DNA of 64,000 bases from Eledone cirrhosa (lineage: Eukaryota): contig OZ024744.1 in NCBI GenBank assembly GCA_964016885.1, positions 28,582,001 to 28,646,000 of the forward strand, read 5' to 3'. The notes below the pieces were generated by a model. That model did not search any database and was not told where the DNA came from. It saw nothing but the letters and a program-made list of their open reading frames with translations. The position numbers and the translations under genes were made by a program. Shown piece after piece: positions 3,197 through 44,057 of this stretch (the stretch's first letter is position 1; each line of letters begins with the position of its first letter).

Positions 3197-3241
<45 letters not shown>
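3197..3241. repeat. (AAT)15 microsatellite separating two Tx1 copies
   Basis: Read directly; lies between the 5' end of copy 1 and the 3' end of copy 2. Confidence 0.97.
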
Positions 3242-3243
<2 letters not shown>

Positions 3244-3503
3244 TTTCTTTATTAACCACAAGGGTTTACATAAAGTAGACATTAAGGACAGTGCAGGACA
3301 ATGCAGGACGGTACAAATGGGCATTTCTGCGTGTAAAAAAACAAAAATAGAGGATGTAACAAAAATAACAATGAAAATAACAATGAAAAATTCCCCAATA
3401 GGGGGGAGACTTCGGAGGGACATTTGTGGAGAAAGCCCAGTAAAAAGCCACAATGACCCTGACCACCAAGGCAAGTGCCCTCTCCCAGTTTTCCACCTTT
3501 AGT

Positions 3504-6500: not shown

Positions 6501-6923
6501 GTCGCCCACTAACACTAAAGAGCGGGACGTTCCAAGAAAGGTCTCCAGACGCCGGAAGAAATCAGGCCGCCCTGCTCCTGTCGGGGCATAGACGGCCACT
6601 AGCCTGAAAGCTTGCCCGTCTCCGCTGGTCACATCCAGCACCACCAGCTTACCCTCTGGGTCCAGGAAGATGGCCTGTATGGCGAGATCCAAACCTCTCC
6701 GAAAAAGCACAGCAACTCCTCCACCCGATCCAGGACGGCTGGGAGATGCGTACACATCGTAGCCGCCGAAGATCGGTGCGAAGGCCCGTGCTTCGGAGAT
6801 TCTGGTCTCGCTGATGGCCACTACATCTATGTTTAGTGACCTGAGGTCGTTGAGCAGGTGACCCTGCTTCCATGACGACCCCAAGCCACGCGCATTTATG
6901 CTGCCTATTCTGAGTGAGGTCAT
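3504..6923 (-). pseudogene. Tx1 ORF2: APE endonuclease, reverse transcriptase and C-terminal zinc knuckle; one premature stop at 4059-4061
   Basis: The 954-aa ORF continues in frame to 3504. Motifs: SINARGL, GDWN, YLDR, TDH (APE); SPGLDG, FRPITLLN, KAFDRV, QGCPLS, YADD (RT); CPRC...H...C. Confidence 0.95.
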
Positions 6924-6957
6924 GTTTAAATAGAGTGGAAAAGATGGGAAAGACCAC

Positions 6958-9047: not shown

Positions 9048-9278
9048 GTTTTTTTGTTTAAAATGAAATTTTGGGTACAAAACCCCAATAACTGGTTATT
9101 TAACCCCGAAGGGCCAAATAACGGACAGAAAGACCCCTCTCACGAGGAGGAGGGTGTCTTTATCAACAATTTGGTTCAAGTTTTAAACAATTTACAATTG
9201 TTTTAACGGTTAAAAATTACTATACCTTACAGAGCCGAGCCTCCGTCAACCATGGCATTCAATAATAATAATAATAAT

Positions 9279-9443
9279 GGTTTCTTTATTGGCCAAAAAG
9301 GCTAACATGAAGAAAAACATTACAGACGCACAGGACGATACAAAGTGGGTTTTAACCGTGTAAAAAGGTTATAAAAGACAGAAACGTGTAAAATAAATGA
9401 AATTCAAATAACAAAAATTCCCCAATAAGGGGGATGCTTCTGA
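9279..9443 (-). mobile_element. 5'-truncated Tx1 3'UTR fragment
   Basis: AATAAAGAAACC abuts (AAT)6 at 9261-9278; carries the same CCCC..TATTGGGGAATTTTT motif as the other Tx1 3'UTRs. Confidence 0.75.
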
Positions 9444-20825: not shown

Positions 20826-20883
<58 letters not shown>

Positions 20884-20896
20884 CCATCATCATAAA

Positions 20897-20934
<38 letters not shown>

Positions 20935-21035
20935 CCATCATCATAAACATCATCATCATCATCATCATCATCACCATCAAGGCAACATTATCATCAACAC
21001 CATCACCAGCACCACCACCATCATCACCATAATCA
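20590..21035. repeat. Imperfect (CAT/CAC)n tract
   Basis: Read directly. Confidence 0.95.
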
Positions 21036-21076
21036 TGAACAACAACACCATGGTTATTATTATTATTATTATTTTT

Positions 21077-24000
21077 CTTTGAGTCTCAGTCATTGATGTT
21101 GGTTAACTGGAAAGTTTGTTGAAATGAACATCAAGCCACTACCTGCAGCCTCAGATATTCAGGACGTATCGGAGGGTTCTTGCTGTTCCCAGCAAGCATG
21201 CCTTTTGAAGTGTTCCAAAAAGCGGAACGGGACCAATCTTCTTTAACCATCCCTGGAAACTCTTTGAGATAGTACCTAGTGCGCCTATGACAATCGGGAC
21301 CACTTTGACCTCATGGCAGTTCCAAATCCTTTTTACCTCCCACTTTAAGTCCTGGTATCGGTTAATTTTCTCCCTCTCCTTCTCTTGCACTCTCGTGTCG
21401 AATGAACAGGCCACATCCACAATCAGGCACGATCTTTTTTCCTTGTCCAAAACCACCAGGTCATGTCTTATTGTGTTCCAGTTTCTTGTCCGTCTGTATC
21501 CTAAAATCCCACAGCACCTTCACCTGATCGTTCTCCATCACCGCCTCTGGCTTATGCTCATACCACTTCTCAGAATGTGGTAAATTGTTTACTTTGCATA
21601 GGTGCCAGTGGATCACCCTGCCCATCACATCATGTCTCCAGCCTTTATAGTGAGCCCGGCTAGGTGTTTACACTCGGATACAATGCGAGCCACAGTCTCC
21701 TCTCTCTCTCTCCACATATCCTGCACAGTGGGCTAGCCCCCTCCTTGTAAATATGGTGTTTCACCCACTTCGTTTTGAGGGCCTGCTCTTGCGCAGCTGT
21801 AGCATCCCTTCTGTAGCCTATGCAAGGTCTCCTCTTTTCAACCTGTTCCATGTATATGGATCTCTAAATTCAGTTTTCTCAAAGAAGGTACTATGAAGGG
21901 ATTTTTCATGAAAGTTTCTCTTCCTCCTTGGACATCCCCTGGCCTATTGTCCCCTCCTTCAGTACAATTCTGAACATTGGCTCCCTACTGTCAGTCATGT
22001 ATTTGTGTAGGTTGTTTTTCTCCATCTGAACACAGTCCTCTATGCTGATAAGACCTCTTCCACCTTCAGATCTCCTTAAGTGGAGTCTATTGACATCACT
22101 CCTCTTGTGGAACATATTGTAGATAGTCAATAGCTTCCTAGTCTTCCTATCCATTTCTTTTTGTTCAGCAACATTCCATCTCAGAATTCCCGCACTCTAT
22201 CTAATAATAGACACAGCTCGGGAATTTATTGCACTTATGGCATTCCTACTGTTCAGATGTGACTTCAATACGCTCCTTACTCTCCGAATGTATTCCTTCA
22301 TTTTTTTGTTCTTGATGTCATCAGCCTCCAGAACACTTAATATCTGAATCCTTCTTCAGTGTCAATTTCCTTTATCATCTCACCTGTTGGTACCCGGATT
22401 ACGTTGCTTCTGCTCAATTTACCTCTCCTTATCACTAGTACTCCACACTTACTAATACCAAATTGCATACATATATCATTGCGGGAAAATACGGACAGTG
22501 TCAACAAGCACATCCAACTCCTTCTCACTCTTCCCGAAGAGCTTAAGATCATTCCATGAAGAGGAGGCGATTGATCGTAAGCTCTCCCTTTCCCAACCTG
22601 TATCCTGCTCTCACCTTTCGCAGTATAATGGTCAGGGTATCAGGGCAAGGACAAACAACAGGGGGGACAAACTATCTCCCTGGAAGATACCTCTCTTGAT
22701 CTTCACGCTTCCCAAGGATTCTCCACCCCATGTTAACTCTGTTTTCCAGGACTTCATACTTTTGCTCAACAACTGTCAGATGTTATCTGCCACCTTGAAG
22801 ATCTCTAGGCTTTTGGTTATCCAAGAATGAGGTACCATGTCCATTGCCTTTTTGTAGTCTATCCATCCGATGGCAAGACCAGTCTCCTCTTACAATTCCT
22901 CATTACCATCTTATCAATAAGTAACTGGTCCTTTGTACCACGGGACTTCTTTCGGCATCCTTTCTGTTCGTCCGGTAACAAGTTGTTTGTGTGGAGGTGA
23001 TGGTAGATTTCCTCAGATACAATGCTTGTCAACAGTTTCCACATTACGGACAGACATGTGATAGGTCTATAGTTGGTAACATCATTACCCTTGATTCGGT
23101 CTTTCATTACCAGAACTGTGGTACCTTTTGTCAACCACTCTGGTACCTCACCTGACATCAAGCAGTCATTGAACATGGCTGTCACTTTTGGGTGGAGGGA
23201 TGTTATGTTTTTAATCCAATACCCTTGCACACCATCTGGGCCTGGTGATTTCCAGTTGGTTAGTTTTCTGGCCTGCCTTTTAATAGTTTCAACTGTGATA
23301 CTCAAATCAGTTTGTTGGTGTGCCTGTTCACTAATCTTCTTTTGTACTGTCCCAATCCACACTGCCTGATCATTATGTTCAACATCCTGCTCCCATATTC
23401 CTCTCCAGAATATCTTAGTCTGTTCCGCCTCAGGGATCAAGTTGTTGCTTCTTTCTTTCCCTTCAAGCTCTCCAAACAACATCTTCTGGTTGTTGTCAAA
23501 CATGCGGTTCTGTCTATACTGACTGACTCTGCTCTCATATCGCCTAATCTTTGTACTATTTGCTACAATGCGTTGCTTCAGTTCCTCTATGATAATATTT
23601 AGCATTTTCCTCCTAGTTTTGTACTTTATTTCCAACTTATTTTTAATGTCTAAGTTTTGTATTGTTCCATTCAGTAGGGACTCAAGCTTTCCAATGTCAT
23701 TTCTCATTTCCCTGATTTGACCATTCAGTCGTTTCTTCCAACAAGGTTCTGATCTTTCTTGTTTGTTGTTTCCTCAAGTATTTATGTCAAGTAATTTTCT
23801 CACCGCATTTGCTGTTGCTTTGAGGATATTGTTGCACTGCTGAAGGCTCCTCGCCTCAAGGTATGGGATGACTTTGTTTACCTTAGCTATTGTTTCTTTT
23901 AACTTTTTCCTGTCTACAAATCATAGGTTCATATGTTTCCCACGATCATTGTTCATTTCATCTACCATTAAGTTTAGGATATCAACCAAATCTTGTCCTA

Positions 24001-24430
24001 GCCCTTCAGCATTCATTTCCTCAATGGCCGTATCTTTGTTCCAGGTCTTATTTATTTCAGCATTCAGATCATTGTCTACTTCGGATGGTGCCTCCGTTCT
24101 CTCAACCTCTTCACCTTCATTTCCCACTGGCTCGTTTGCCTGGCATACTCCACTCTCCATTTCCAATCTAATCTCTCTGCTCAGTTCCTTCAGTTCCAGC
24201 TCGCTTATCCACCCATTAGTTCTTATTACCCGAGCCTGCCCGGCCAATTTTTGTTCATCTAATTTAAATAGACCCATCTCGTTCCAGATGTTATGCATCC
24301 GTTTCCTATAGCCTTTTTCCTTGGGGATACTCGTCAGGTAACATTACATAACAATTCTATTCAATTATTTCGTCCAGTTGGTTCTGGTCCCTTTCCTTCT
24401 TCTTCTACCTCCAACACCAGCAGTATTTGG
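21077..24430 (-). mobile_element. R4/Dong-clade non-LTR retrotransposon, 5'-truncated and degenerate
   Basis: Fragmented ORFs homologous to 36400-39788 (WKSPGPDG, YRPITCL, RLE domain); flanked by (TTA)n at 21054-21072 and 24437-24475. Confidence 0.9.
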
Positions 24431-24436
24431 ATGATG

Positions 24437-24475
<39 letters not shown>

Positions 24476-27400
24476 GGCGACCTACGTAGTAAATCGTATC
24501 ATCGTGAGCTCCGCAAAGGTTTGTTATTTCCGTTTGTTAAAAATTGTCATTTATGGAAAATTTTATTGTTAACTGTTTATAAGCGCACATACATTGTTTT
24601 CCGAAAAGGACACCCAAAAAGATTGGGGCCTTGTGCCCAAAATTTAAACTTTTATTATTATCAAAAATTTCTTTGAAAAAAAATGGCTAATTCACCTCTG
24701 CACCAAGCAGCTGAAAGCCTTCCTCACAAATTAACACCTCACACCGACACCACCATTGTAAATGTTACTACATTTGCCAACACAAAAACAAATATAAGCA
24801 GTAGCAATATTTTAAATTTGTCTCAGGCAGACATTCATTTCCCGCCATTACCAATGACTGCAGGTGTTAAAGCCTCCACCACCACCACCACCGCGGCACC
24901 CCCCCCCCCCCCACCACCGCGACAACAGAAACAAAAGAAGAAAAAATAAATTAACTCGTGATGTCGAAATGAAATCAAGCAAAATGGACTCTTCCCCACC
25001 AAAGACGACTGACGTCACCACCACCACAACTGAAACTAAAATTAATATTAACGATAGCAACAACAACAACAATGACATTATAACCCCCCCCCCCTCAGTT
25101 TCGCCAGAGTAGCAAAACAATTCGAAGCATTTACCGTAACTCAGGAAGATTTAGAAAATGCCAAACAAATGGTAAAGAAAGATGGGTACAGGGTCAGCCT
25201 CACCCCCCCACCTAATAAAATGGAGCATCGGCGCCTATGCACCGTGTCTTATAGAACAATAAATGTAAAATCGCGCCGAGTGGAACGGGCATCCGAGTCC
25301 CAAATCCAAAAAGCTTTGGGACATGTGTGGGCAAGAAAAACCCACATCAGACGTGGGAAAAAGTAAGGAACCGTGGACGTGTTCTTTGAAACACCAGAGG
25401 AGGCTAGAGAACACTCCATGGCCTCATTAAAAAGAGACGACTTCACACTCGTCCCAAGCTATTGTGGCCAGAGACTCGTAAAGATCAGGGTGACCCACGT
25501 TCCACCGGCCATCGAAATTCCCTGGCTAATAGCGGCCGTCCTCGCCGGCATCGAAGCCAACACGAAAATAATAGCAATAGCAAAAGAAAAGCAGGAAAAC
25601 TGGTCCGGATCTGGGACGGAGCTCCTGATCCAAGCGGACCAAAAAAGCATTGAGGAGATCCCAGAGGTAATAGACCTCACTGACGGCAGCCACCTCACGG
25701 TAATTGTCGAGGGCAGAAGACCTAGGTGTGTCGTTTGTGGTGAAGGAACCCACCTAAGGGCTTTCTGCCCTCAGGCTAAAAGGTTGAGGCCACCTCTCCT
25801 ACCCACCCCAGTGACACAACCATCAACACCACCAGTAGCAGAGATGGCAGCAACAACTGTAGCAGCAACAACAGAAGCAACTATAACAGCAACAACCCCA
25901 GCAACAGTAGCAAAACCAACACCACCACCACCACCACCAGCAAAACCAACACCACCACCACCCAACGTTTCAGAACTAGCACCAGCGCCTACACCATCCA
26001 CCACGCCACAACCAAAACTAACGGCTGTGGAGGATTTTCCACTCCCCGGCCTATCACAACTGGAGACAGATTGTGACGACGAGGAGTGGGAAACGATATC
26101 CGGAAAAAAAAAAAAGAAACCAACAAAGAAAAAAATCTCTTCCTTCCCCCTCCAAAAACAAAATACAGAGGGAAACAAATAAATTAAGAAACAAAAAAGT
26201 TAGGACAGATATGCCACCATCCACACCAGCATCACCAACCCCATCAACCCAAACACCAACACCATCACCATCATTAACCCCAACACCACCATCACCTACA
26301 CCACAAAAGTCACCAAAATGCGAAACAGAAACAAACCCACAACAAACGCAAACAAAACAAAACAACGAAAACGATACACACTACACAGCATTAAATTTGA
26401 ACAACAAGCAATTATTACACTACATCCAACACAACACCAGCATCACAGAAAAAGACTACACAACATCCCCAAAATTCACACCACCTCCACACATACAAAT
26501 CACTCGCATCACACAGAAAACGTACATGACACTAAAACAAAAATTCCCCAAAGACATCGGAGACTTCCGACAAGCACTCTCCAGGAGGATTTATAAGGAC
26601 ATCCTTCCTGAGGAGGCCACAAGCAGTGAAAAGGATGGAAAAACCGTCCTTCCCCTACGAGAAGTAAGGTAAGTGGTCTTTCCCATCTTTTCCACTCCTT
26701 TTCAACATGACCTCACTCAGAATAGGCAGCATAAATGCGCGTGGCTTGGGGTCGTCATGGAAGCAGGGCCACCTGCTCAACGACCTCAGGTGACTAAACA
26801 TAGATGTAGTGGCCATCAGCGAGACCAGAATCTCCGAAGCACAGGCTTTCGCACCGATCTTCGGCGGCTACGGTGTGTACGCATCTCCCAGCCGTCCGGG
26901 ATCGGGGGAGGAGTTGCTGTGCTTTTTCGGAGACGTTTGGATCTTGCCATACGGGCCATCTTCCTGGACCCAGAAGGTAAGTTGGTGGTGCTGTACGTGA
27001 CCAGCGGAGACGGGCAAGCTTTCAGGTTAGTGGCCGTCTATGCCCCGACAGGAGCAGGGCGGCCTGATTTCTTCCGGCGTCTGGAGACCTTTCTTGGAAC
27101 GTCCCGCTCTTTAGTGTTAGTGGGCGACTGGAACGGGATCTTAGATGCACGCTGGGATTGTGTGGGATTAGTGGATAGGGAAGGAGGGCGCAAGAGTCTC
27201 ACCAACCTGCTCAGACGTTTTGAACTGTCTGACAGGTACCGAATGGATTTCCCGAATGTACCAATGTGGACTTGGACAAATCGCATAAGGTCATCCAAAT
27301 CATATCTAGATAGAGTATTTTGTAGGGAAATAGATAGGTCTAGCATAGGCTGTCCACAATTCAAGATAGTCAGCTACACGGACCACAAATTCGTGATCTG

Positions 27401-30367
27401 TGTGCTTGACTTAGATAGGCTTCATAGACAAGGACCCGGCTACTGGAAGCTAAACGCGTCCTTACCAGCGCGCAAGGCCTACAGAGACCGGATTAGCGAA
27501 CTAGTTAAGCGGGCGTTGACGGGGGCCATCGTCAACAACAAGTGGTGGTTTGCTCTGAAAAGAGCAATTAGAATAGAGTCCATTAGGTTTAGTAAGACTT
27601 TAGCAATATAGAAAAATAGAGCAGAGGGAGAATTAGTTAGAAAATTAGATGAGGCGCTTAGCAAAGGCATCGCGACCGACGTACTTGCGGCGAAATTGGC
27701 CCTTGACCAATTCTTCAATGCAAAGCACGAAGGCTGCGTTGTCAGAGCTAGGGTGCGTGCTCTCAAACACGAGGGGACGAAAGCCGTTCAATGGGCCCGA
27801 GTGGCGGAGGCGCGTCGTTGCAACAAAGCCACGATCCGGTCTTTGGTGGACCACGACGGGCGCATGCTACTCGATCCCGGGCAAATGTGTGAAGCTTTTC
27901 AGCGACACTTCGCTCAACTGTTCGGGGGCAGTGGCGGGCCGGATCGAGGGATGAACTTTAGTGTCTACCTCGACGGACTGCCGCGGCTTTCGGCCACTGA
28001 GGCGGAGTGTTGCGAAAAGCCGATAACAACCGCTGAAGTACGGGATGCAATGACTAGTTGCACAAGGGGTAAATCACCTGGTTTGGATGGTCTGCCCTAT
28101 GAACTTTACGTACAAATGCCAAACTTGTTCGGAGGCCTCTTGGCGGACGTCTACTGCAACTGGCAACAGAACGGGAGAATTCCCAGCTCTGTGAGCCGAG
28201 GAGCGGTGGCGCTGCTGAGAAAGGATCCGAACAAGGGGGATAACATAGATAATTTTAGGCCCATAACTCTGCTAAACACAGAGTTCAAGATTTTGGCCAA
28301 GGTGCTAGCAAAGAGGTTGGCGCTTGTCGTTGGTGGTCTGGTGGGAGAGGCACAGACATGCGCCATTCCCGACAGATCCATCCACGACAACCTCCACCTC
28401 ATGCGATACATCGTAGAGAGGGTAGCTAGGGAACCTGGCACGGGTGGGTCTTTGATCAATTTAGATCAGTCGAAAGCCTTCGATGGGTCGACCATCGTTA
28501 CCTAGCGGCAGTCCTGAGGGCGGCTGGCTTTGGGCCCGTCTTCAGAGGCTGGATCGCTGCCATGCACAGCGACATCTGCTCTGTAGTGAGAGTGAACGGT
28601 CACCTTTCGGAACCGTTCAACATCATGCGCTCGGTCCACCAAGGATGTCCCCTCTCGTCCCTATTGTACGTATTGACTCTCGAGCCATTACTGCACAAAC
28701 TGGAGACGTTGAGGGGCGTCCCGCGCGAACTAGGATGCGGAAGATCCGTGTCAGCATATGCCGACGATGTCACCGTAGTGGTGTCGAACGCCAAACACAT
28801 CAAGGCGATCGGCACTACACTAAGAGAATACGAAGCGGTGACAGGAGCAATGATCAACCAGGAAAAGTCAGTGGGCCTGCAGCTCGGCACCTGGAGAGGC
28901 AGGTCCATGCCGTCCAACAGCGTCGTCGGGCGCTGGACGGACGGACCGGTTAAATTACTAGGGGTCTGGTTCGGTCCAGACCTCCAGACGGACAAAAACT
29001 GGGACGAGGTGACGAGCAGGGTGGCTTCCCTCACCCAGAAATGTGCCGAGAGGAAGCTATCCCTGAAAGGTCGAGCGGAGGTGGCGAATGCGTACATCGC
29101 ATCCGTCATCTACTACCGCCTGACCGTCGTACCTTGTCCTCAGCCCCGCCTGACTGCGCTGGAGCGTTTGCTCTTTCGCTTTTTGTGGAAGGGACGCGCT
29201 CCGATGGTCAGGAGGTCCATCTGCTGTCAAGACCCACTACGTGGAGGGCTGGGCATGCCGTGGCTGATGATGCGCAGACACGCGCTCAGGCTACGACATC
29301 TCCACCTCTTCCTCGACGGTGATCAGGTGTGGTCGCCGTTTGCGAGACACGTATTTCCCCAGCTCGTTTCCTTGACGGAGCTGCAGTCCTGGGTCAAGCG
29401 AAGACCGAGAGGGAGCGCTTGGAGACTGGAATGTGTTCAGGCGCTCACAGCCCTCGACCAATCGGGCAATGTGATCGGTGGAAACTCCACCTTGGCGTTC
29501 TATAGGGGATTAGTGGAGGGGAAGAGCGACGACATACTTGGAGAAACTCTAGGCGTCGACGAAAATCAACTAGCGAATCTCTTCGGAAGGACTTTCGGGC
29601 CGGGGCCTATGGACAACTTCCAGAAATCCCTGGCCTGGCAGTGCTACCGAGGAGCTTTGCCAGTTCGGGATAAACTCTACAGGCATGGAGGTGTCGTCAG
29701 CCGGGCATGTCCGAGATGCGCGCAGGGCGACGAAACTGTCCTGCACGCACTCGTCCAGTGTCCGAGCATTGCTGACTTGTGGGTTTATGTCGAACACCTG
29801 CTGTCACGTGTAGGACGGATCCAGCTATCAGCTGAGTCCATCGTGAGGATTGCCCCAACCCCTTCCTTTAGCCGGGAGGGGCAGGCAGTTTTTATCTGTC
29901 TGGTGGCCATGGCGAAAGAGATAGTATGGTGGACACGTTTGAAAGGGCTGAAGACGAGCACTTACCTCTTCGGTGATGCTCTGATTAACTTTTTCAAATT
30001 TCATTTGAAAAGGAAAATCAGGGTAGAGAGGGAAGTGCTCTCTTCCCAGCATTTTGTTGAAAGATGGGTGAGAGAAGCAAGTATGGCCCGAATGAATGGG
30101 CCTTCTCTGAGTATGTGTCTGTAAATTAAAGGTGGAAAACTGGGAGAGGGCACTTGCCCTGGTGGTCAGGGCCACTGTGGTCTTTTAATGGGCTTTCTCC
30201 ACAAATGTCCCTCGGAAGTCTCCCCCCTATTGGGGAATTTTTCTTTGTTATTTTATTTCAACCTCTGTTCTTTTTACACGCAGAAATGCCCATTTGTACC
30301 GTCCTGTATTGTCCTGTACTGTCCTTAATGTCTACTTTATGTAAACCCTTGTTGTTAATAAAGAAAA

Positions 30368-30368
<1 letters not shown>
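24476..30368 (+). mobile_element. Full-length Tx1-clade element, type B, copy 1
   Basis: 5'UTR GGCGACCTACG...; fragmented ORF1 at 24683-26672 (CVVCGEGTHLRAFC); ORF2 at 26707-30124 with frameshifts and stops; 3' AATAAAGAAAAC followed by (ATT)19. Confidence 0.94.
26707..30124 (+). pseudogene. Tx1 ORF2 (APE-RT-zinc knuckle), disrupted
   Basis: ORF pieces 26673-27611, 27696-28505 and 28562-30124 are nearly identical in sequence to 3504-6923. Confidence 0.93.
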
Positions 30369-30425
<57 letters not shown>

Positions 30426-33400
30426 GGCGACCTACGTAGGAAATCGTATCATAGTGAGCTCCGCAAAGGTTTGTTATTTCCGTTTGTTAAAAATTGCCAT
30501 TTATGGAAAATTTTATTGTTAACTGTTTATAAGCACACATACATTGTTTTCCGAAAAGGACACCCAAAAAGATTGGGGCCTTGTGCCCAAAATTTTAACT
30601 TTTATTATTATCCAAAAATTTCTTTGAGAAAAAATGGCTAATTCCCCTCTGCACGAAGCAGCTGAAAGCCTTCCTCACAAAATAACACCTCACACCGACA
30701 CCACCATTGTAAATGTTACTACGTTTGCCAACACAAATAAAATATAAGCAGTAGCAATAATTTAAATTTGTCTCAGGCAGACATTCATTTCCCGCCATTG
30801 CCAATGACTGCAGGTGTTAAATCCTCCACCACCACCACCACCGCGACAACCACCACCCCCTCCACCACCGCGACAACAGAAACAAAAGAAGAAAAAAATT
30901 AATTAACTCATGATGTCGAAATGAAATCAAGCAAAATGGACTCTTCCGCACCAAAGACGACTGACGTCACCACCACCACAACTGAAACTAAAATTAATAT
31001 TAACACAAGTAACGATAGCAACAACAACAACAATGACATTATAACCCCCCCCCCCCGCCTCAATTTCGCCAGAGTAGCAAAACAATTTGAAGCATTCACG
31101 GTAACTCAAGACGATTAAGAAAATGCCAAACAAATGGTAAAGAAAAATGGGTACAGGGTCAGCCTCCCCCCCCACCTAATAAAATGGAGCATCGGCGCCT
31201 ATGCACCGTGTCGTATAGAACAATAAATGTAAAATCGCGCCGAGTGGAACGGGCATCCGAGTCCTAAATCCAAAAAGCTTTGGGACATGTGTGGGCAAGA
31301 AAAATCCACATCAGACGTGGGCAAAAGTATGGAACCGTGGATGTGTTCTTTGAAACACCAGAGGAGGCTAGAGAACACTCCATGGCCCCATTAAAAAGTG
31401 ACGACTTCACACTCGTCCCAAGCTATTGTGGCCAGAGACCCGTAAAGATCAGGGTGACCCACGTTCCACCGGCCATCGAAATTCCCTGGCTAATAGCGGC
31501 TGTCCTCGCCGGCATCGAAGCCAACACGAAAATAATAGCAATAGCAAAAGAAAAGCAGGAAAACTGGTCCGGATCTGGGATGGAGCTCCTAATCCAAGCG
31601 GACCAAAAAAGCATTGAGGAGATCCCAGAGGTAATAGACCTCACTGACGGCAGCCACCTCACGGTAATTGTCGAGGGCAGAAGTCCTAGGTGTGTCGTTT
31701 GTGGTGAAGGAACCCACCTAAGGGCTTTCTGCCCTCAGGCTAAAAAGTTGAGGTCACCTCTCCTACCCACCCAGTGACACAACCATCAACACCACCAGTA
31801 GCAGAGATGGCAGCAACAACTGTAGCAGCAACAACAGAAGCAACTATAACAGCAACAACCCCAGCAACAGTAGCAAAACCAACACCACCCAACGCTACAG
31901 AACTAGCACCAGCGCCTACACCATCCACCACACCACAACCAAAACTAACGGCTGTGGAGGATTTTCCACTCCCCGGCCTATCACAACTGGAGACAGATTG
32001 TGACGACGAGGAGTGGGAAACGATATCCGGAAAAAAAAAGAAACCAAAAAAGAAAAAATTCTCTTCCTTCCCCCTCCAAAAACAAAATACAGAGGGAAAC
32101 AAATAAATTAAGAAACAAAAAAGTTAGGACAGATATGCCACCATCCACACCAGCATCACCAATCCCATCAACCCAAACACCAACACCATCATTAACCCCA
32201 GCACCACCATCACCTACAGCACAAAAGTCACCAAAATGCGAAACAGAAACAAACCCACAACAAACGCAAACAAAACAAAACAACCAAAACGATACACACT
32301 ACACAGCATTAAATTTGAACAACAAGCAATTATTACACTACATCCAACACAACACCAGCATCACAGAAAAAGACTACACAACAACCCCAAAATTCACACC
32401 ACCTCCACACATACAAATCACTCGCATCACACAGAAAACGTACATGACACTAAAACAAAAATTCCCCAAAGACATCGGAAACTTCCGACAAGCACTCTCC
32501 AGGAGGATTTATAAGGACATCCTTCCTGAGGAGGCCACAAGCAGTGAAAAGGATGGAAAAACTGTCCTTCCCCTACGAGAAGTAAGGTAAGTGGTCTTTC
32601 CCATCTTTTCCACTCCTTTTCAACATGACCTCACTCAGAATAGGCAGCATAAATGCGCGTGGCTTGGGGTCGTCATGGAAGCAGGGCCACCTGCTCAACG
32701 ACCTCAGGTCACTAAACATAGATGTAGTGGCCATCAGCGAGACCAGAATCTCCGAAGCACAGGCTTTCGCACCGATCTTCGGCGGCTACGGTGTGTACGC
32801 ATCTCCCAGCCGCCCGGGATCGGGGGAGGAGTTGCTGTGCTTTTTCGGAGACGTTTGGATCTTGCCATACGGGCCATCTTCCTGGACCCAGAAGGTAAGT
32901 TGGTGGTGCTGGACGTGATCAGCGGAGACGGGCAAGCTTTCAGGTTAGTGGCCGTCTATGCCCCGACAGGAGCAGGGCGGCCTGATTTCTTCCGGCGTCT
33001 GGAGACCTTTCTTGGAACGTCCCGCTCTTTAGTGTTAGTGGGCGACTGGAACGGGATCTTAGTTACACGCTGGGATTGTGTGGGATTAGTGGATAGGGAA
33101 GGAGGGCGCAAGAGTCTCACCAACCTGCTCAGACGTTTTGAACTGTCTGACAGGTACCGAATGGATTTCCCGAATGTACCAATGTGGACTTGGACAAATC
33201 GCATAAGGTCATCCAAATCATATCTAGATAGAGTATTTTGTAGGGAAATAGATAGGTCTAGCATAGGCTGTCCACAATTCAAGATAGTCAGCTACACGGA
33301 CCACAAATTCGTGATCTGTGTGCTTGACTTAGATAGGCTTCATAGACAAGGACCCGGCTACTGGAAGCTAAATGCGTCCTTACCAGCGCGCAAGGCCTAC

Positions 33401-36285
33401 AGAGACCGGATTAGCGAACTAGTTAAGCGGGCGTTGACGGGGGCCATCGTCAACAACAAGTGGTGGTTTGCTCTGAAAAGAGCAATTAGAATAGAGTCCA
33501 TTAGGTTTAGTAAGACTTTAGCAATAGAGAAAAATAGAGCAGAGGGAGAATTAGTTAGAAAATTAGATGAGGCGCTTAGCAAAGGCATCGCGACCGACGT
33601 ACTTGCGGCGAAATTGGCCCTTGACCAATTCTTCAATGCAAAGCACGAAGGCTGCGTTGTCAGAGCTAGGGTGCGTGCTCTCAGACACGAGGCGACGAAA
33701 GCCGTTCAATGGGCCCGAGTGGCAGAGGCGCGTCGTGGCAACAAAGCCACGATCCGGTTTTGGTGGACCACGACGGGCGCATGCTACTCGATCCCGGGCA
33801 AATGTGTGAAGCTTTTCAGCGACACTTCGCTCAACTGTTCGGGGGCAGTGGCGGGCCGGATCGAGGGATGGACTTTAGTGTCTACCTCGACGGACTGCCG
33901 CGGCTTTCGGCCACTGAGGCGGAGTGTTGCGAAAAGCCGATAACAACCGCTGAAGTACGGGATGCAATGACTAGTTGCTCAAGGGGTAAATCACCTGGTT
34001 TGGATGGTCTGCCCTATGAACTTTACGTACAAATGCCAAACTTGTTCGGAGGCCTCTTGGCGGACGTCTACTGCAACTGGCAACAGAACGGGAGAATTCC
34101 CAGCTCTGTGAGCCGAGGAGCGGTGGCGCTGCTGAAGAAGGATCCGAACAAGGGGGATAACATAGATAATTTTAGGCCCATAACTCTGCTAAACACAGAG
34201 TTCAAGATTTTGGCCAAGGTGCTAGCAAAGAAGTTGGCGCTTGTCGTTGGTGGTCTGGTGGGAGAGGCACAGACATGCGCCATTCCCGACAGATCCATCC
34301 ACGACAACCTCCACCTCATGCGATACATCGTAGAGAGGGTAGCTAGGGAATCTGGCACGGGTGGGTCTTTGATCAATTTAGATCAGTCGAAAGCCTTCGA
34401 TAGGGTTGACCATCGTTACCTAGCGGCAGTCCTGAGGGCGGCTGGCTTTGGGCCTGTCTTCAGAGGCTGGATCGCTGCCATGCACAGCGACATCTGCTCT
34501 GTAGTGAGAGTGAACGGTCACCTTTCGGAACCGTTCAACATCATGCGCTCGGTCCACCAAGGATGTCCCCTCTCGTCCCTATTGTACGTATTGACTCTCG
34601 AGCCATTACTGCACAAACTGGAGAGGTTGAGGGGGGTCCCGCGCGAACTAGGATGCGGAAGATCCGTGTCAGCATATGCCGACGATGTCACCGTAGTGGT
34701 GTCGAACGCCAAACACATCGAGGCGATCGGCACTACACTAAGAGAATACGAAGCGGTGACAGGAGCAATGATCAACCAGGAAAAGTCAGTGGGCCTGCAG
34801 TTCGGCACCTGGAGAGGCAGGTCCATGCCGTCCATCAGCGTCGTCGGGCGCTGGACGGACGGACCGGTTAAATTGCTAGGGGTCTGGTTCGGTCCAGACC
34901 TCCAGACGGACAAAAACTGGGACGAGGTGACGAGCAGGGTGGCTTCTCTCACCCAGAAATAGGCCGAGAGGAAGCTATCCCTGAAAGGTCGAGCGGAGGT
35001 GGCGAGTGCGTACATCGCATCCGTCATCTACTACCGGCTGACCGTTGTACCTTGTCCTAAGCCCCGCCTGACTGCGCTGGAGCGTTTGCTCTTTCGCTTC
35101 TTGTGGAAAGGACGCGCTCCGATGGTCAGGCGGTCCATCTGCTGTCAACACCCGCTACGTGGAGGGCTGGGCATGCCGTAGCTGATGATGCGCAGACACT
35201 TGCTCAGGCTACGACATCTCCACCTCTTCCTCGACTGTGATCAGGTGTGGTCGCCGTTTGCTAGACACGTTTTTCCCCAGCTCATCTCCTTGACGGAGCT
35301 GCAGTCCTGGGTCAAGCGAAGACCGAGAGGGAGCGCTTGGAGACTGGAATGTCTTCAGGCGCTCACAGCCCTCGACCAATCGGGCAATGTGATCGGTGGA
35401 AACTCCACCTTGGCGTTCTATAGGGGATTAGTGGAGGGGAAGAGCGACGACGTACTTGGAGAAACTCTAGGCGTCGACGAAAATCAACTAGCCAATCTCT
35501 TCGGAAGGACTTTCGGGCCGGGGCCTATGGACAACTTCCAGAAATCCCTGGCCTGGCAGTGCTACCGAGGAGCTCTGCCAGTTCGGGATAAACTCTACAG
35601 GCATGGAGGTGCCGTCAGCCGGGCATGTCCGAGATGCGCGCAGGGCGACGAAACCGTCCTGCACGCACTCGTCCAGTGTCCGAGCATTGCTGACTTGTGG
35701 GTTTATGTCGAACACCTGCTGTCACGTGTAGGACCTACCCAGCTATCAGCTGAGTCCATCGTGAGGATTGCCCCGCCCCCTTCCTTTAGCCTGGAAGGGC
35801 AGGCAGTTTTTATCTGTCTGGTGGCCATGGCGAAAGAGATAGTATGGTGGACACGTTTGAAAGGGCTGAAGACGAGCACTTACCTATTCGGTGATGCCCT
35901 GATTAACTTTTTCAAATTTCATTTGAAAAGGAAAATCAGGGTAGAGAGGGAAGTTCTCTCTTCCCAGCATTTTGTTGAAAGATGGGTGAGAGAAGCAAGT
36001 ATGGCCCGAATGAATGGGCCTTCTCTGAGTATGTGTCTGTAAATTAAAGGTGGAAAACTGGGAGAGGGCACTTGCCCTGGTGGTCAGGGCCACTGTGGTC
36101 TTTTAATGGGCTTTCTCCACAAATGTCCCTCGGAAGTCTCCCCCCTATTGGGGAATTTTTCTTTGTTATTTTATTTCAACCTCTGTTCTTTTTACACCCA
36201 GAAATGCCCATTTGTACCGTCCTGTATTGTCCTGTACTGTCCTTAATGTCTACTTTATGTAAACCCTTGTGGTTAATATAGAAAA

Positions 36286-36286
<1 letters not shown>
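30426..36286 (+). mobile_element. Full-length Tx1-clade element, type B, copy 2
   Basis: Near-identical to 24476-30368; ORF2 at 32625-36042 is disrupted; flanked by (ATT)19 and (ATT)13. Confidence 0.94.
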
Positions 36287-36326
<40 letters not shown>

Positions 36327-36399
36327 CTTGAATCTCAGTCATTGATGTTGGTTAACTGGAAAGTCCGTTGGATTGAATATCAAGCCACTACCTGCAGCC

Positions 36400-39300
36400 T
36401 CAGATATTCAGGACGTATCGGTTGGTTCTTGCCGTTCCAAGCAAGCATGCCTTTTGAAGCGTTCCAAAAAGCGTGAAGGGGCCGATTTTCTTTAACCATC
36501 CCTGGAAATCTTTGGAGATAGTCCCCAGTGCGCCTATGACAATCGGGATCACTTTGACTTCATGGCAGTTCCAAATCCTTTTCACCTCCCACTTTAGGTC
36601 CTGGTATCGGTTAATTTTCTCCCTCTCCTTCTCTTGCACTCTCGTGTCGAACGGGCAGGCCACATCCACAATCAGGCACGATCTTTTTTCTTTGTCCACA
36701 ACCACCAGGTCAGGTCTATTGTGTTCCAGTTTTTTGTCCGTCTGTATCCTAAAATCCCACAGCACCTTCACCTGACTGTTCTCCATCACCGCCTCTGGCT
36801 TATGCTCATACCATTTCTCAGAATGTGGTAGATTGTTTACTTTGCACAGGTGCCAGTGGATCACCCTGCCCATCACATCGTGTCTCCAGCCCTTATAGTG
36901 GGTCTGGGCTAGGTGTTTACACTCGGACACAATGTGAGCCACAGTCTCCTCTCTCCACAGATCCTGCACAGTGGGCTAGCCTCCTCCTTGTAGATATGGT
37001 GCTTCAACCACTTCGTTTTGAGGGCCTGCACCTGCGCAGCCATTAGCATTCCTTCTGTAGCCTTTTTGAGGTCTCCTCTTCTCAACCAGTTCCATGTCTG
37101 TGGATCTCTAAATTCAGTTTTCTCAAAGAAGGTACTATGAAGGGATTTTCCCTTAAGGCTGCTCTTCCTCCTTGATGTTATTTCCTCCTTGGGTATCCCC
37201 TGGCCTACTGTCCCCTCCTTCAGTACAGCTCTGAGCATTGGCTCCTTACTATAGGTCACGTATTTGTATAGGTTGTTTTTCTCCATCTGAACACAGTCCT
37301 CTATGCTGATAAGACCTCTTCCACCCTCAGATCTCCTTAGGTAGAGTCTATCGACATCACTCCTCTTGTGGAACATGTTGTAGATAGTCAATAGCTTCCT
37401 AGTCTTCCTATCCATTTCTTTTTGTTCAGCAACATTCCATCTCAGAATTCCCGCACTGTACCTAATAATAGACACAGCTCGGGAATTTACTGCGCTTATG
37501 GCATTTCTGCTGTTCAGATGTGACTTCAATACGCTCCTTACTCTCCGAATGTATTCAGTTCTTAACAATTCCTTCATTTTTTTGTTCTTTATGCCATCAG
37601 CCTCCAGAACGCCCAAATACTTGTATCCTTCCTCAGAGTCAATTTCCTTTATCATCTCACCTGTTGGTATCTGGATCCCGTTACTTCTGCTCAACCTACC
37701 CCTCCTCATCACAATGACTCCACATTTACCAATACCAAACTGCATACATATATCACTGCTGAAAATACGGACAGTGTCAACAAGCACATCCAACTCCTTC
37801 TCACTTTTCCCGAAGAGCTTAAGATCGTCCATGAAGAGGAGGTGATTGATGGTAAGCTCTCCCCTTCCCAACTTGTATCCTGCTCTCACTTTTCGCAGCA
37901 TAATGGTCAAGGGTATCAGGGCAAGGACAAACAACAGAGGGGACAGGCTATCTCCCTCGAAGATACCTCTCTTGATCTTCACGCTTCCCAAGGATACTCC
38001 AGTTGATGTCAACTCTGTCTCCCAGGACCCCATACTCCTGCCCAGCAACTGTCTGATGTTATCTGCCACCCTGAAGATCTCCAGGCTTTTGGTGATCCAG
38101 GAATGAGGCACCATGTCAAATGCCTTTCTGTAGTCTATCCATCCCATGGCAAGATCAGTGTGTCTCCTCCTGCAATTCCCCATTACCATCTTATCAATAA
38201 GCAACTGGTCCTTTGTACCACGTGACTTCTTTCGGCATCCTTTCTGTTCGTCCGGCAACAAGTTGTTTGTGTGGAGGTGATGGTAGATTTCCTCAGACAC
38301 AATGCTCGTCAACAGTTTCCACATTACGGGCAGACATGTGATAGGTCTATAGTTGGTAACATCATTACCCTTGATTCGGTCTTTCATTATCAGAACTGTG
38401 GTACCTTTTGTCAACCACTCTGGCACCTCACCCGACACCAAGCAGTCATTGAACATGGCCGTCAGCTTCGGGTGGAGGGATGTTAAATGTTTAATCCAAT
38501 ACCCCTGCACACCATCTGGGCCTGGTGATTTCCAGTTGGTTAGTTTTTTGGCTTGCCCCTTAAGAGTTTCAACTGTGATACTCAAATCAGTCTGTTGCTG
38601 TGCCTGCTCACCGATCTCCCTCTGTACTGTCTCAATCCACCCTGCCTGGGCATTGTGTCTAACATCCTGCTCCCATATTCCTCTCCAGAATGTTTTAGCT
38701 TGTTCCGCCCCAGGGATCAAGTCGTTGCCTCTTTCTTTCCCCTCAAGCTGTCCAAACAGCATCTTCTGGTTGTTGTCGAACATGCGGTTCTGTTTATACT
38801 GACTGACTCTGTTCTCGTATCGCCTGATTTTGGCACTCTTTGCTACAATGCGTTGCTTCAATTCCTCTATGATAATATTTAGCTTTTTACTCCTAGTTTT
38901 GTATTTTATTTCCAGTCTATTTTTAGTGCCTATGTTTTTTAGTGTCCCATTCAGTAGTGACTCAAGCTTTCCTATGTCATTTCTCATTTCCCCGATTTGC
39001 CCACTCAGTCGCTTCTTCCACCACGGCTCTGCTCTTTCTTGTCTGTTGTTTCCTCTCGCTTTTATACCAAGTAGTTTCCTCACCGTATTTGCTGTTGCTT
39101 TGAGGATATTGTTGCACTGGTGAAGACTCATCGCCTCAAGATATGGGATGACTTTGTTTACCTTAGCTGTTGTTTCTTTTAACTTTTTCCTGTCTACAAA
39201 TCTTAGGTTCATAGGTCTCCCACTATCATTGTTCAACTCATCTACCACTAAATTTAGGATGTCAACCGAATCTTGTCCTAGCCCGTCAGCATTCATCTCC

Positions 39301-39788
39301 TCAGTGGCCGTATCTCTGTTCCAGGTATTATTTATCTCAGTATTCAGATCATTGTCTGCTTCGGGTGGTTCCTCCGTTCTCAGGACCTCCTCACCTTCAT
39401 TTCCCGCCGGCTCGCTTGTCTGGCATACTACACCCGCCATCTCCAAGCCATTCTCTCTGCTCAGTTCCTCCAGTTCCAGCTCGCTTATCCACCCATTAGT
39501 TCTTATTACCCGAGCCTGCCCGGCCAATTTTTGTTCATCTAATTTAAATAAACCAATCTCGTTCCAGATGTTATGCATCCGTCTCCTGTAGCCCCTCTCC
39601 TTGGGGTTACTTTTCAGGTAGCATTGCATAACAGTTCTATTCAATTCTTTCGTCCAGTTGGTTCTGGCCCCTTTCCTTCTTCTTCTTCCTCCAACATCAG
39701 CAGTATTTGGTTGACAGTCAGGTTCCTGCTGCTGAGCCAGGGGGCACCTGTTGGGTGAGAGTCTGTCACATGACGTTCTAGTCTCCAT
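36400..39788 (-). pseudogene. R4/Dong single ORF: RT, CCHC knuckle and PD-(D/E)xK restriction-like endonuclease; one frameshift near 36950
   Basis: 959-aa ORF (WKSPGPDG, IDYRKAFD, GDSLSP, HLLFMDD) plus a 189-aa ORF (CRIC..ETVAHIVSEC, RHD, RPDLV, E.EK..RY). Confidence 0.93.
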
Positions 39789-40357
39789 TTCACCGTTATT
39801 CGAACTGTTTATGTTCGATATTTAAACACTCTTATCGAGGATTGGCGAATGTATGTTTACATAGCCATCTGTGGATCCGCCATCCCACTTGGCCCTTGTG
39901 TGGCATTATCACCACGCTGTATACGGACACACATAAACAAACAAACACACGGGCAGAAAGGGCCCCAAAAATGAATAAGCATAAGTTTCATTGTAATGTA
40001 GTATTCGAATGTCTGACTTAGTTTTTGTTTTTTAAGTTTTACTTTTTCCCCCCTCTTCTCTGTCCGTCCGCCTGCTTCTCTCTTCATTCTTATTTTCTTT
40101 ACGTTTTTGGGGTTTCTTTTTTTGTTTTTGTTTTTCTCTGTTTTTCTCGTTTTTTACTGTTGTTGCTGTGCTGCTTTTGTTGTTTGTTTTTTATTTTTTC
40201 TTTTGAGTCTATCTATATATTTTGATGCCTTCCTCTTTGTTAGTAGTAGGAATTCTATAATGTGGAAGTGGTAGCCAGCAGAGACTGGCGGCGTTGGCGA
40301 TACTGAGACAGTGGTGGTGGTGATGTCGATACCGAGGCAGTGGTGGCGGTGATGCGA

Positions 40358-41000
40358 CCGTATTACTGTAGTGATGGTGCTGTAGCGGTGGCAGCAGCAG
40401 TGAAGGAGTCAGGGGGTGGTGGCGGCGGTGATGGGATAGTGGTGGTAATGATGGCCGTAGTGAGCGGTGGCGGTGAAGGTGAAAATGCTGTTGTGTTTAG
40501 TGTACACAGATGATGGGGTGGGTGGTGTATCTAGTTTCTGGTGTTGGTGAGTTTCGTTGTCCTATATAGTGTAGCCAGAGGAGAGGAGGGGGGGGGGTTC
40601 TTCTTCTTCCATTTATAGCCATTTTATTTTGTTTGGGATATACAGTGTACAATACAAAGTTGAATATTTGAATATTTGAGCCGTATTACTGTAGTGATGG
40701 TGCTGTAGCGGTGGCAGCAGCAGTGAAGGAGTCAAAGGGTGGTGGCGGCGGTGATGGGATAGTGGTGGTAATGATGGCCGTAGTGAGCGGTGGCGGTGAA
40801 GGTGAAAATGCTGTTGTGTTTAGTGTACACAGATGATGGGGTGGGTGGTGTATCTAGTTTCTGGTGTTGGTGAGTTTAGCTGTCCTATATAGTGTAGCCA
40901 GAGGAGAGGAGGGGGGGGGGGGTTCTTCTTCTTCCATTTATAGCCATTTTTTTTGGATATACAGTGTACAATACAAAGTTGAATATTTGAATATTTGAGC
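40358..41000. repeat. Tandem duplication of a ~323-bp unit inside the Dong leader
   Basis: 40358-40680 is near-identical to 40681-41000. Confidence 0.92.
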
Positions 41001-41167
41001 CTTATAACAATATATTTTGGGTCCGAATTTTTTTGGGGCTCAAGCCGGGTGCTTTACGTAGCATTTGTACTAAGAGTTGTTATTTCACAAATGATTTAAA
41101 TATGTTAAAAATTCAAAACTTACGGGAGCGATTTCATGACCTCCGTCACCTCGTGCGTTTTCTTCCC

Positions 41168-41240
<73 letters not shown>

Positions 41241-41244
41241 TATT

Positions 41245-43783
41245 GAAGGTGAAGCCTCCAGTTTTTTTTTCAACAAATTACCTCGTCTTCAAACATTCTA
41301 AACCTCTTATTGAAGTTTTAAACTTGATAAAAGGTTATAAGAAGTGACCCACCTAATACAGGAGTTCACTCGTAAATAATAAGGCACCCCTTTACGGGAT
41401 GTCGTATTGTGAAAAAGTATTATTTGAAAGAAATTTCTTTCAACATGGATAACACAAGAAAGAGAGAGAATGCTGTCAGACAACACAGAGAGAGGGAGAT
41501 TTTGTCAACATGTCAACAACACAATGTTCTAGTGAAGGTAAATATAAAAGAAAATATTACGAAGGAAAAGAGGAACAATATCATTTTTAATTACCTCGGA
41601 GTGCGTCTGGGCGCGCAAACCCACATCATCTGAAGCAGAAAGTACGCCACAGTAGACGTATTTTTGGACACGGTGTTAGCAACGAGGTTGGCGCTTTTCG
41701 TTGGGTGCCTGGTGGGAGAGACGCAGATTGCGCCATTCCGGACAGATCCATACACTACAACCTCCACCTCATTCGATACTTCGTAGAGACGGTGGTTAAG
41801 GAACCTGGCACGGGTGGGGCCCTGATCAACTTAGATCAATCCAAAGCATTCGATAGGGTCGACCATCGGATCATGGCGGCGGTCTCGAGGCAGCCCGTTT
41901 CGAGCCCGTTTTCGGGGGTTGGACGCTGCAATGTATAGCGACATCTGCTCAGTTGTGAGGGTGAACGGTCACCTGTCGCAGCCGTTCAGCATCATGCGTT
42001 CGGTCCGCCAGGGTTGTCCCCTCTCGTCCTTCATTTACGTATTGGCCCTCGAGCCGTTACTGCACAAACTGGGAGCGGTGAGAGGCGTCCCACGCGAACT
42101 AGGATGCGGGAAATCCGAGTCGGCTTACGCTGACGAGGTCACCGTGGTGGTGTCGAGCACCAGATACGTCCAGATGCTCGGCACCGCTCTCAAGGAATAC
42201 GAAGCGGTGACAGGAGCAAAGATAAACCAGGAAAAGTCGGTGGGCTTGCAGCTCTGCACCTGGAGAGGCAAGTATATGCCGTCCGACAGCGTCATGGGCG
42301 TTGGACAAACAGACCGGTTAAATTGCTCGTGGTCTGGTTCGGACCGGACCTCTAAATGGAGAAAAACTGGAGCGATGTGACGTGCAGGGTGGCCTCCCTA
42401 ATCCAAAAATGGGCCGAGAGGAAGCTGTCCCTGAAAGGCCAGGCGGAGGTGGCGAATGCGTACATCGCATCCGTCATCTACCGCCTCACCGTCGTCCCTT
42501 GCCCCTGCCCAACTCTCACCAAAATGGAGCGCCTCCTCTTTCGCTTTTTGTGGAAGGGACGCGCTCCCATGGCCAGGCGATCGATCTGCTGTCAACACCC
42601 GTTGCGTGGAGGACTGGGCATGCCATGGCTGATGATGTACAAACAGGTGCTGAGGCTGCAACATCTCTGGTGCTTCCTTGAAGGTGAACAGGTGTGGTCG
42701 CTGTTTGCCAGGCACGTTTTCCCACAGCTCGTCTCCTTGTCGGGGCTGCAGTCCTGGGTCAGGAAAAGACCGAGGGATAGCGCTTGGAAACTGGAATGTC
42801 TCCAGGCGCTCACTACCCTCTGCCAGCTAGGCACCAGAATCGGTGGAACATCCACATCAGCGTTTTATAGAGGACTAGTGGTGGGAAGAGTGACGACGTT
42901 CTCGGAGAGATCCTGGGCGTCGAAGAAGATCAGCTGTTTGCCCTCTTCCGGAGAACTTTCAGCCCAAGGCCTATAGATAACTTCTAAAAACCCAGGCTTG
43001 GCAGTGCTACCGCGGAGCGTTGCCGGTTCGAGATAAGCTCTACAGGCACGGAAGTGCTGTCAGCCGAGTCTGTCCGACATGCGCGCAGAGCGATGAAACC
43101 GTCATGCACGCACTCGTTCAATGCCCAAGCATTGCTAACTTGTGGAGCTATGTCGAACAGTTGCTGTCGCGTGTAGGACTGATCCGGTTATCGACTGAGT
43201 CCATTGTGCAGATGGTCTCGCCGTCTTCCTTCGAGGAGGAAGAGCAGGCGGTTTTCATCTGCCTGGTGGCCATGGCGAAAGAGATTGTGTGGTGGACAAG
43301 TTTGAAAGGGTTACAGACAGACACTTTCCTCTTCGGCGAATCCCTAATTAACTTTTTCAAGTTTCTCTTGAAGAGAAAAATCAGGGTGGAGAGGCAAGTG
43401 CTGCCTTCTAGCAAGTTTGTTGAATGTAGCGAGAATGGTCTGAGTGAACGGGACCGCTCTGAATATACGCATGTAGTTTGAGAAATGGAAAAATTGAGAG
43501 AGGGCGCTTGCCCTGGTGGTCAGGGTGGCCGTGGTCTTTTGTGTGGCTTTCGCCACGAGTAACCCTCGGAGGTTTAGCTCATATTGGGGGATTTTTTATT
43601 GTTTCAATTTTCATTTTTATTCCTTATATATATATATGTTTCTATGTCTTTTTTTTCTGTTCTTATATAAATAATAAAAATCTGTACACGCACAAAACCC
43701 ACATCGTACCGTCCTGTACCGTCCTGTGCCGTATGTAATGTTTGTCTTGATGTCAGTCCTTGTGGCAAATAAAGAAATAATAA
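41245..43783 (+). mobile_element. Older, internally deleted Tx1 element (type C)
   Basis: Starts after (TTA)n. The ORF1 remnant KYATVDVF (~41640-41670) joins directly to the ORF2 RT region (VLAxRLA). Diverged RT and C-terminus run to ~43480; 3' end GGCAAATAAAGAAAT. Confidence 0.85.
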
Positions 43784-43977
43784 TTGTTTCTACTTTTGGC
43801 ACAAGGCCATCAATTAACCAGTACATTACTGGTACTTTATTTTATCGACCCCGTAAGGATGAAAGGCAAAGTTAACCTCGGCGGGATTTGAACTCAGACC
43901 GCAAAGGGACGTAACTATGCTAGAAAGCATGGCGTCCGACCCTCTACCGGTACTGCCAATCCACCACCCTTAGATAT
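43784..43977 (-). mobile_element. tRNA-derived SINE with a ~17-bp TSD
   Basis: A and B boxes plus the central block; AAATAAAGAAATAATAA is duplicated at 43767-43783 and 43978-43994. Confidence 0.85.
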
Positions 43978-44057
43978 AAATAAAGAAATAATAAAAATTA
44001 TTATTATTATTATTATTAATATTTTCTTTCATTATTGTTTCTGAGATATCCTGATAA

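Follow-up and report, generated by a model that had tools for sequence, protein, structure and literature searches.

The 64,000-nucleotide (nt) stretch of the Eledone cirrhosa genome analyzed here (contig OZ024744.1, 28,582,001-28,646,000, of a 3.0-Gb genome; hereafter the window) carries at 21054..44023 a stack of five long interspersed nuclear elements (LINEs) of two lineages, Tx1-like and Dong/R4-type, lodged in one (ATT)n microsatellite and reading in opposite, fixed directions relative to the repeat. The array is genuine, and the genome holds many others like it. Its three Tx1-like members, which belong to a group with an apurinic-endonuclease-like (APE) domain, read into ATT, and its two Dong copies, of a family with a restriction-like endonuclease (RLE), read into AAT. 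We consider it likely that both lineages target the repeat, led by their endonucleases and aided by their RNA, and that they would insert serially, with priming nicks on opposite strands.

Repeats at element junctions

Genome-wide counts of element heads and 3′ ends, made as exact-pattern matches, place TTATTATT directly before 1473 of 1567 Tx1B heads (94%) and ATTAT directly after 6572 of 7148 3′ ends of the Tx1A and Tx1B subfamilies (92%), shares to be set beside the >20% of flanks with the target by which a Tx1 family is called microsatellite-specific (PMC4494074). Junctions were also sampled as the best matches to the window's copies rather than as random copies, with the window's own copies left out, and were scored positive when at least three repeat units lay within 30 nt. 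By this measure ATT stands at all 29 Tx1B heads and 24 of 28 3′ ends, AAT stands at all 29 Dong 3′ ends and 28 of 29 full-length Dong heads, and the other strand's repeat is found at none of the sampled Tx1B or Dong junctions. As background, 39,880 positions were sampled from 40 regions of 10 kb at even spacing, and 103 of them (0.26%) have (ATT)3 within 30 nt.

Among 38 Tx1A/B copies followed upstream, 28 reach the head and ATT precedes every one of them, and among 20 Dong copies so followed 11 of 17 truncated 5′ ends abut AAT, as judged by eye. The full-length share is in itself unusually high for Tx1A/B (28/38); for Dong it is 3/20. Orientation was read at 309 distinct tracts, drawn from all fetched loci, which had been chosen for element content and not for orientation: Tx1 ends are co-oriented with ATT in 186 of 188 cases and Dong ends are opposite to it in 226 of 228, and of the four exceptions two come from inverted tracts lying next to each other.

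Because the repeats stand at 5′ junctions, both of full-length copies and of truncated Dong copies, and because orientation is fixed, the repeats are mostly targets rather than tails. The earlier note on this DNA, made from its letters alone, had proposed as much and had named beforehand two outcomes that would undo the proposal, namely a majority of copies lacking the repeat at the 5′ junction and random orientation relative to it; neither turned out to hold. Its further statement that the elements lack poly(A) tails is borne out for Tx1A/B by the fetched loci (overlapping loci included), where none of 111 3′ ends is followed by an A-run.

A probable mechanism led by the endonucleases

Target-primed reverse transcription starts with a nick in the strand that is complementary to the sense strand of the element. 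On the reading that we prefer, elements would insert one at a time into (ATT)n/(AAT)n by this route, with the Tx1-like APE nicking the (AAT)n strand, probably at the TpA step of AAT|AAT in the manner of L1, while the (ATT)n strand would be nicked by the Dong RLE; the earlier wording that the two "nick opposite strands" would thus apply to the first, priming nick only. An insertion would split the tract and duplicate a short stretch of it, so that repeat stays at each end as a target for whichever family inserts next, and since repeats do stand on both sides, each insertion appears to leave new target, as had been suggested. The choice of site would lie chiefly with the endonuclease, and RNA ends that resemble the repeat would assist in priming and 5′ joining.

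The Tx1 nick is placed at AAT|AAT because the 3′ junction is fixed at C|ATT and because target duplications begin at ATT; they span 16-18 nt at a Tx1B copy inserted off target (L127/L039) and at least 11 nt at L140. Cutting at TpA is described for the L1 endonuclease (PMC13295347). A second source of information is a short interspersed nuclear element (SINE). Its tail is similar to that of Tx1, and to judge from sequence the SINE is likely carried by the Tx1-like lineage, mostly at short ATT-like sites. Of 68 SINE 3′ ends, 37 show a duplication of at least 8 nt (median 12, most starting with ATTATT), and the base preceding it is C in 14, T in 14, A in 9 and G in none (n = 37, a count outside which lie the 31 ends without an 8-nt duplication); duplications inside ATT tracts are uninformative. 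The SINE is very abundant: regions at even spacing that total 400 kb hold 35 copies. ARAGORN found no tRNA in its head.

Several observations weigh against a choice of site made by the endonucleases, or against parts of the scheme. First, only 281 of 654 Dong heads have AATAATAA upstream in one exact phase. Second, among 16 plainly truncated Tx1 copies, inspected by eye, ATT at the 5′ end is clear in 6, degenerate in 4 and absent in 6; this set leaves out the internally deleted, chimaeric or rearranged copies at L121, L131, L133, L135, L137, L146, L152, L155, L221 and L234. Since 6/16 is a much lower share than the 94% at full-length heads, RNA tails may help in targeting. Third, many Dong loci have interrupted AAT-like tails (AATAAC...) in common, which means that part of the Dong 3′ repeat is copied from RNA. 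Fourth, where the 3′ tract of a full-length Tx1 copy is broken (L132, L134, L156), the 5′ side lacks a matching duplication of 16 nt. Finally, that the SINE uses the Tx1 enzyme is presumed from the likeness of the tails.

In a rival reading, the RNA, and not strand-specific enzymes, would remember target and orientation. Elements would be transcribed into the repeat (Tx1B also from it), and a loosely AT-specific nick would be productive only where the (AUU)n or (AAU)n end of the RNA pairs with the freed strand. The absence of poly(A) at all 111 Tx1 3′ ends, the interrupted tails common to Dong loci, the exact phase at 92-94% of Tx1 junctions and the far greater frequency of ATT at full-length Tx1 heads than at truncated ends are all in keeping with such RNA-guided homing, as is the occupation of different repeats by sister families that share a 3′ tail motif. 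There is precedent in the pairing of RNA and target in SART1 and R1Bm (PMC7265360) and in the role of a repeat tail in Bov-B (PMC13295347). However, pairing downstream of the nick leaves unexplained why C or T precedes 28 of 37 SINE duplications and G never does; moreover, endonuclease swaps between SART1 and TRAS1 move specificity (PMC7265360), and the Tx1L endonuclease is sequence-specific by itself (PMC1950540). We therefore regard homing by RNA as an unlikely account of the whole, if one with some claim to attention, and retain the endonuclease-led scheme.

Growth of the stacks

Stacking is frequent. Among the first 100 Tx1 3′ ends on one contig (C1), 34 of 99 gaps measure at most 15 kb, as compared with 2.7% expected; 19 of 29 Tx1B heads follow the end of a Dong, Tx1 or SINE across the tract; and one of the 40 evenly spaced 10-kb regions contains such an array. 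A second Dong family and the Tx1 subfamilies A, C and D occupy the same tracts in the same orientations. In the window's stack, identity to the nearest fetched relative rises from 89-90% in Tx1C through 92-93% in the left Dong and about 98% in each Tx1B copy to 99.3-99.7% in the inner Dong, which is an order with the oldest members outside and the youngest inside, as fits serial insertion. Because the ages of the copies differ, the stack grew via separate insertions. The second Tx1B copy is closer to a copy on a different contig (97.9%) than to the first (96.8%), which makes a separate insertion likely, and a tandem duplication of the two was rejected since each is closer to copies elsewhere.

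These data also bear on the possibility that the repeats are nothing but 3′ tails made by the elements, the stacks having arisen by attraction to AT-rich tails or by co-copying of neighbors (3′ transduction or tandem duplication). The truncated Tx1 copies at L141, L153, L157 and L248, with long 3′ (ATT)n and no ATT at the 5′ end, would suit such an origin, as would the frequency with which a Tx1B head follows another recognized element. Head-to-head spacers, which are impossible from 3′ tails, are nonetheless common and no shorter than tail-to-tail ones (medians of 45-51 nt, n = 45, versus 34.5 nt, n = 34), AAT adjoins truncated Dong 5′ ends, and the closest relatives of the array's members lie elsewhere and not next to them. 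The 5′ junction counts largely refute a tail-only origin, and we rejected it on the truncated Dong ends and the head-to-head spacers; it is very improbable. Least credible of all, to the point of being nearly negligible, is that assembly misjoined sequence through ATT tracts or that harmless random insertions accumulated passively, given that copies differ by 3-20%, that phase and orientation are fixed at thousands of loci and that selection for harmlessness would not fix orientation, even though short-read contigs did not bridge the array. In a search of four runs for the empty site, pieces at 43400-44700 were dominated by other copies, none of them bridging the stretch.

Identity of the LINE families

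An intact Tx1B open reading frame 2 (ORF2; locus L128, 1152 codons from stop to stop) matches the Pfam families Exo_endo_phos, RVT_1 and zf-RVT, and among solved structures is closest to L1 ORF2p (E 9e-49), with R2 at E 1e-18. An ORF1 accompanied by an ORF2 with N-terminal APE, reverse transcriptase (RT) and C-terminal zinc finger, together with an RT nearer that of L1, is the arrangement of the L1 group. ORF1 carries one CX2CX4HX4C knuckle in both Tx1A and Tx1B, and a gag-like CCHC knuckle in ORF1 is a feature of the Tx1 clade. No Pfam ORF1 family matched the Tx1 ORF1; a likeness to the ZCCHC3-like N-terminus of P0021 was rejected, as the knuckle alone aligned (E 0.14 or worse). Among named proteins, the Tx1B RT region is closest to one of Argonauta hians (72%), and in an RT tree the Tx1-like families of this genome fall with two database proteins into a single octopod clade (support 1.0), surrounded by unnamed homologues. 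No named Tx1 (such as Tx1L, Kibi, Koshi or Keno) appeared among the matches of homologue searches or of a cluster look-up. The label Tx1-like is hence a probable one, taken from the earlier note, the domain layout and general features of the clade.

An intact Dong copy (L162, 1141 codons) has a single long ORF with an RT and no match to Exo_endo_phos. Its C-terminus bears CCHC, RHD and PD..D motifs, the RLE stretch aligns to the RLE of R2, and its best matches among solved structures are R2 proteins. RT, a C-terminal zinc knuckle and a PD..D RLE without APE, along with insertion at (TAA)n such that the sense strand carries the repeat, are what is expected of Dong/R4, a label that likewise would follow from domain layout and general features of the clade. 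Because one endonuclease is an L1-like APE and the other an R2-like RLE, the endonucleases of Tx1B and Dong are unrelated. A second Dong/R4 family (L251, L254, L257, L258), not alignable to the first at the DNA level, also reads into (AAT)n and is common in arrays.

Tx1A (window 3242-9260) and Tx1B (24476-30368) are 95% identical in ORF2, have different heads and ORF1 regions 72% alike, and L257 seems to bear yet another Tx1 head (cf. L253, L257); the differences suggest exchange of 5′ modules. The Tx1A head (9225-9260, minus strand), the Dong head (41115-41167, minus strand) and L238 have in common the short motif TGACGGAGG, after which comes a CTCYGTAAG-like stretch. Although Tx1A and Dong are unrelated, the motif could possibly represent a promoter element that they share.

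Layout of the window

Window tracts and alignments reproduce the element order, strands and spacer lengths that the earlier note had given for the five-LINE stack. At the left edge lies a (TTA/ATT)6 tract without strand (21054..21073, with (ATT)6 at 21056-21073). The first Dong/R4-type copy follows on the minus strand (21074..24436); it belongs to the stack as stated, with the refinement that it is 5′-truncated, and it is an older copy with broken frames, 89.5% identical to the second Dong. An (ATT)13 spacer (24437..24475) separates its truncated 5′ end from the head of the first Tx1B copy, a full-length LINE on the plus strand (24476..30368) with broken frames and without poly(A), whose layout comprises an ORF1 with one CCHC knuckle and an ORF2 of the order APE-RT-zf-RVT. 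Next come an (ATT)19 spacer (30369..30425), the second Tx1B copy, likewise full length on the plus strand (30426..36286), and an (ATT)13 spacer (36287..36325) between its 3′ end and that of the second Dong copy.

This Dong (36326..41167, minus strand) is full length and is the array's youngest member, at 99.3-99.7% identity to other loci. Its 970-codon frame (36909-39821) carries the RT, and a frameshift precedes the RLE domain. Its 5′ untranslated region contains a 330-bp tandem duplication (40358-41008), and full-length Dong copies elsewhere vary by about that length (L163, 4840; L164, 4529). A (TTA)~25 spacer (41168..41244) leads from the Dong head to the head of Tx1C on the plus strand (41245..43780), which consists of a 325-nt head and the 3′ 2.1 kb around an internal deletion of about 3.5 kb and is 80% identical to Tx1B. 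Within the Tx1C 3′ end sits a 184-nt SINE copy on the minus strand (43786..43969), bracketed by a 17-bp duplication (43767-43783 and 43978-43994). The claim that every arrayed Tx1 reads into ATT holds in general, and for Tx1C once this inserted SINE is set aside. An (ATT)7-9 tract without strand (43997..44023) forms the right edge.

A second array on the minus strand (1..9420) comprises two Tx1A copies and one Tx1 3′ end, with spacers of (AAT)15 at 3197 and (AAT)6 at 9261, and extends 6.7 kb to the left of the window. Its Tx1A ORF2 differs from that of Tx1B by 5%, and head and ORF1 diverge as described above. Directly left of the five-LINE array, a 450-bp (CAT/CAC)n abruptly cuts off an old Tx1-like fragment (20048-21050; 76% to Tx1B). 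Open frames of 263, 407 and 217 codons at 46364-47155 (minus strand) and 51185-53028 (plus strand) have no Pfam match.

Sister families on other repeats

Other, related Tx1-like copies carry this tail motif as well but continue into (TATC)n or, in one relative (L194), into (TAG)n. The 3′ pattern of the sister family has 3759 exact matches in the genome, and TATC-type repeats follow about 22 of the first 30. Among 20 sister-family regions followed upstream, truncated copies included and 8 of them picked from tandem pairs, about 15 have TATC at the 5′ junction as judged by eye. The TATC family (L215, L187, window 17509-18000, L266-L315) has (TATC)n at both ends and forms tandem arrays of its own. 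In the tree, in which some rows are partial, the sister families nest among the ATT ones.

With somewhat more doubt than belief, we picture an octopod Tx1-like lineage that radiated over microsatellites, with at least four subfamilies on (ATT)n, a sister family on (TATC)n and perhaps a spread to (TAG)n, a self-renewing ATT niche shared with two Dong families that use the other strand, and a SINE of some 250,000 copies on the same enzyme. If so, much of the long (ATT)n in the genome would owe its origin and upkeep to the shared niche, and the endonucleases of close sisters would form a natural series in which to find residues that switch APE specificity.

Relation to known systems

R1 and R2 in the 28S rDNA are APE and RLE elements on one multicopy target. 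They insert at different sites of one gene in the same orientation, and no shared simple repeat is regenerated. The Tx1-like and Dong elements here resemble them in that APE and RLE exploit one target, and differ in that their sites lie in one repeat and their orientations are opposite.

Dong elements specific for TAA are described from silkworm, mosquito and snail, as are the Tx1 families Kibi and Koshi on TC and TTC (PMC3812793). The Dong copies here have RT and C-terminal RLE in common with Bombyx Dong, DongAg, the snail's DongBg and the Dong-R4 families of Octopus, have the TAA target described for Dong (PMC3812793), and agree in orientation and phase with the Bombyx (TAA)7-G junction primer (PMC3774820). 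PMC3812793, in its available part, places Dong among APE elements, unlike the RLE-type copy here. A hepatitis delta virus (HDV)-like ribozyme is reported for Bombyx Dong (PMC3774820); at the heads here there was no relevant Rfam match, and a crude descriptor with folds gave chance-like hits only. Unlike known Dong, both Dong families here share tracts with Tx1-like elements in large stacks. Of the convergence of two lineages on one target that had been proposed, the part that stands concerns Tx1: the Dong TAA target is old and already known, and only the Tx1 side would have converged.

On the Tx1 side, Kibi on (TC)n, Koshi on (TTC)n and the crocodilian Tx1 on (TTCC)n/(TTTC)n are likewise L1-group APE elements in microsatellites (PMC4494074), from which the families here are set apart by target, (ATT)n and (TATC)n for the sister family, and by their octopod host. 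In the literature searched, outside of which lie Repbase and the Tx1-target listings of PMC4494074, the available parts name no ATT- or TATC-specific Tx1-like family, and PMC4640811 and PMC4758252 contain nothing on ATT targets in the parts available; ATT thus appears to be an unreported target for a Tx1-like lineage, although a prior description is quite possible, as the PMC4494074 listings may name one. Octopod studies describe Dong-R4 and L1-Tx1 as abundant or active and name no target in their available parts (PMC13282606, PMC8967140, PMC9115989), with Dong-R4 recently active in Octopus vulgaris (PMC13282606). Nor did the literature searched, which left out most subscription papers, yield an APE and an RLE element that occupy a common microsatellite.

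LINEs with a specific target are rare, and they are investigated as tools for integration. A family that is young, high in copy number, for the most part full length and directed at an apparently new three-base target, with sister families 60-80% alike on other repeats, makes the respective roles of endonuclease and RNA tail testable, and APE and RLE on opposite strands of one repeat offer a clean case of niche sharing. For cephalopod genomics, the stacks add tens of kb at single sites, and ATT microsatellites are often transposon junctions rather than free markers.

A parallel in geometry is offered by TRAS and SART, two families that insert in opposite directions into one (TTAGG)n repeat (PMC7265360); those are both R1-clade APE elements at telomeres, whereas here an APE and an RLE lineage meet in dispersed interstitial microsatellites. 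The SINE, too, has a counterpart in the crocodilian SINEU, which shares the target preference of Tx1-Mar and forms tandem insertions (PMC4494074), the target there being a Mariner transposon and here a microsatellite. Since each ingredient has such a precedent, the shared ATT tracts of Eledone are best viewed as a good case study rather than as a new kind of system.

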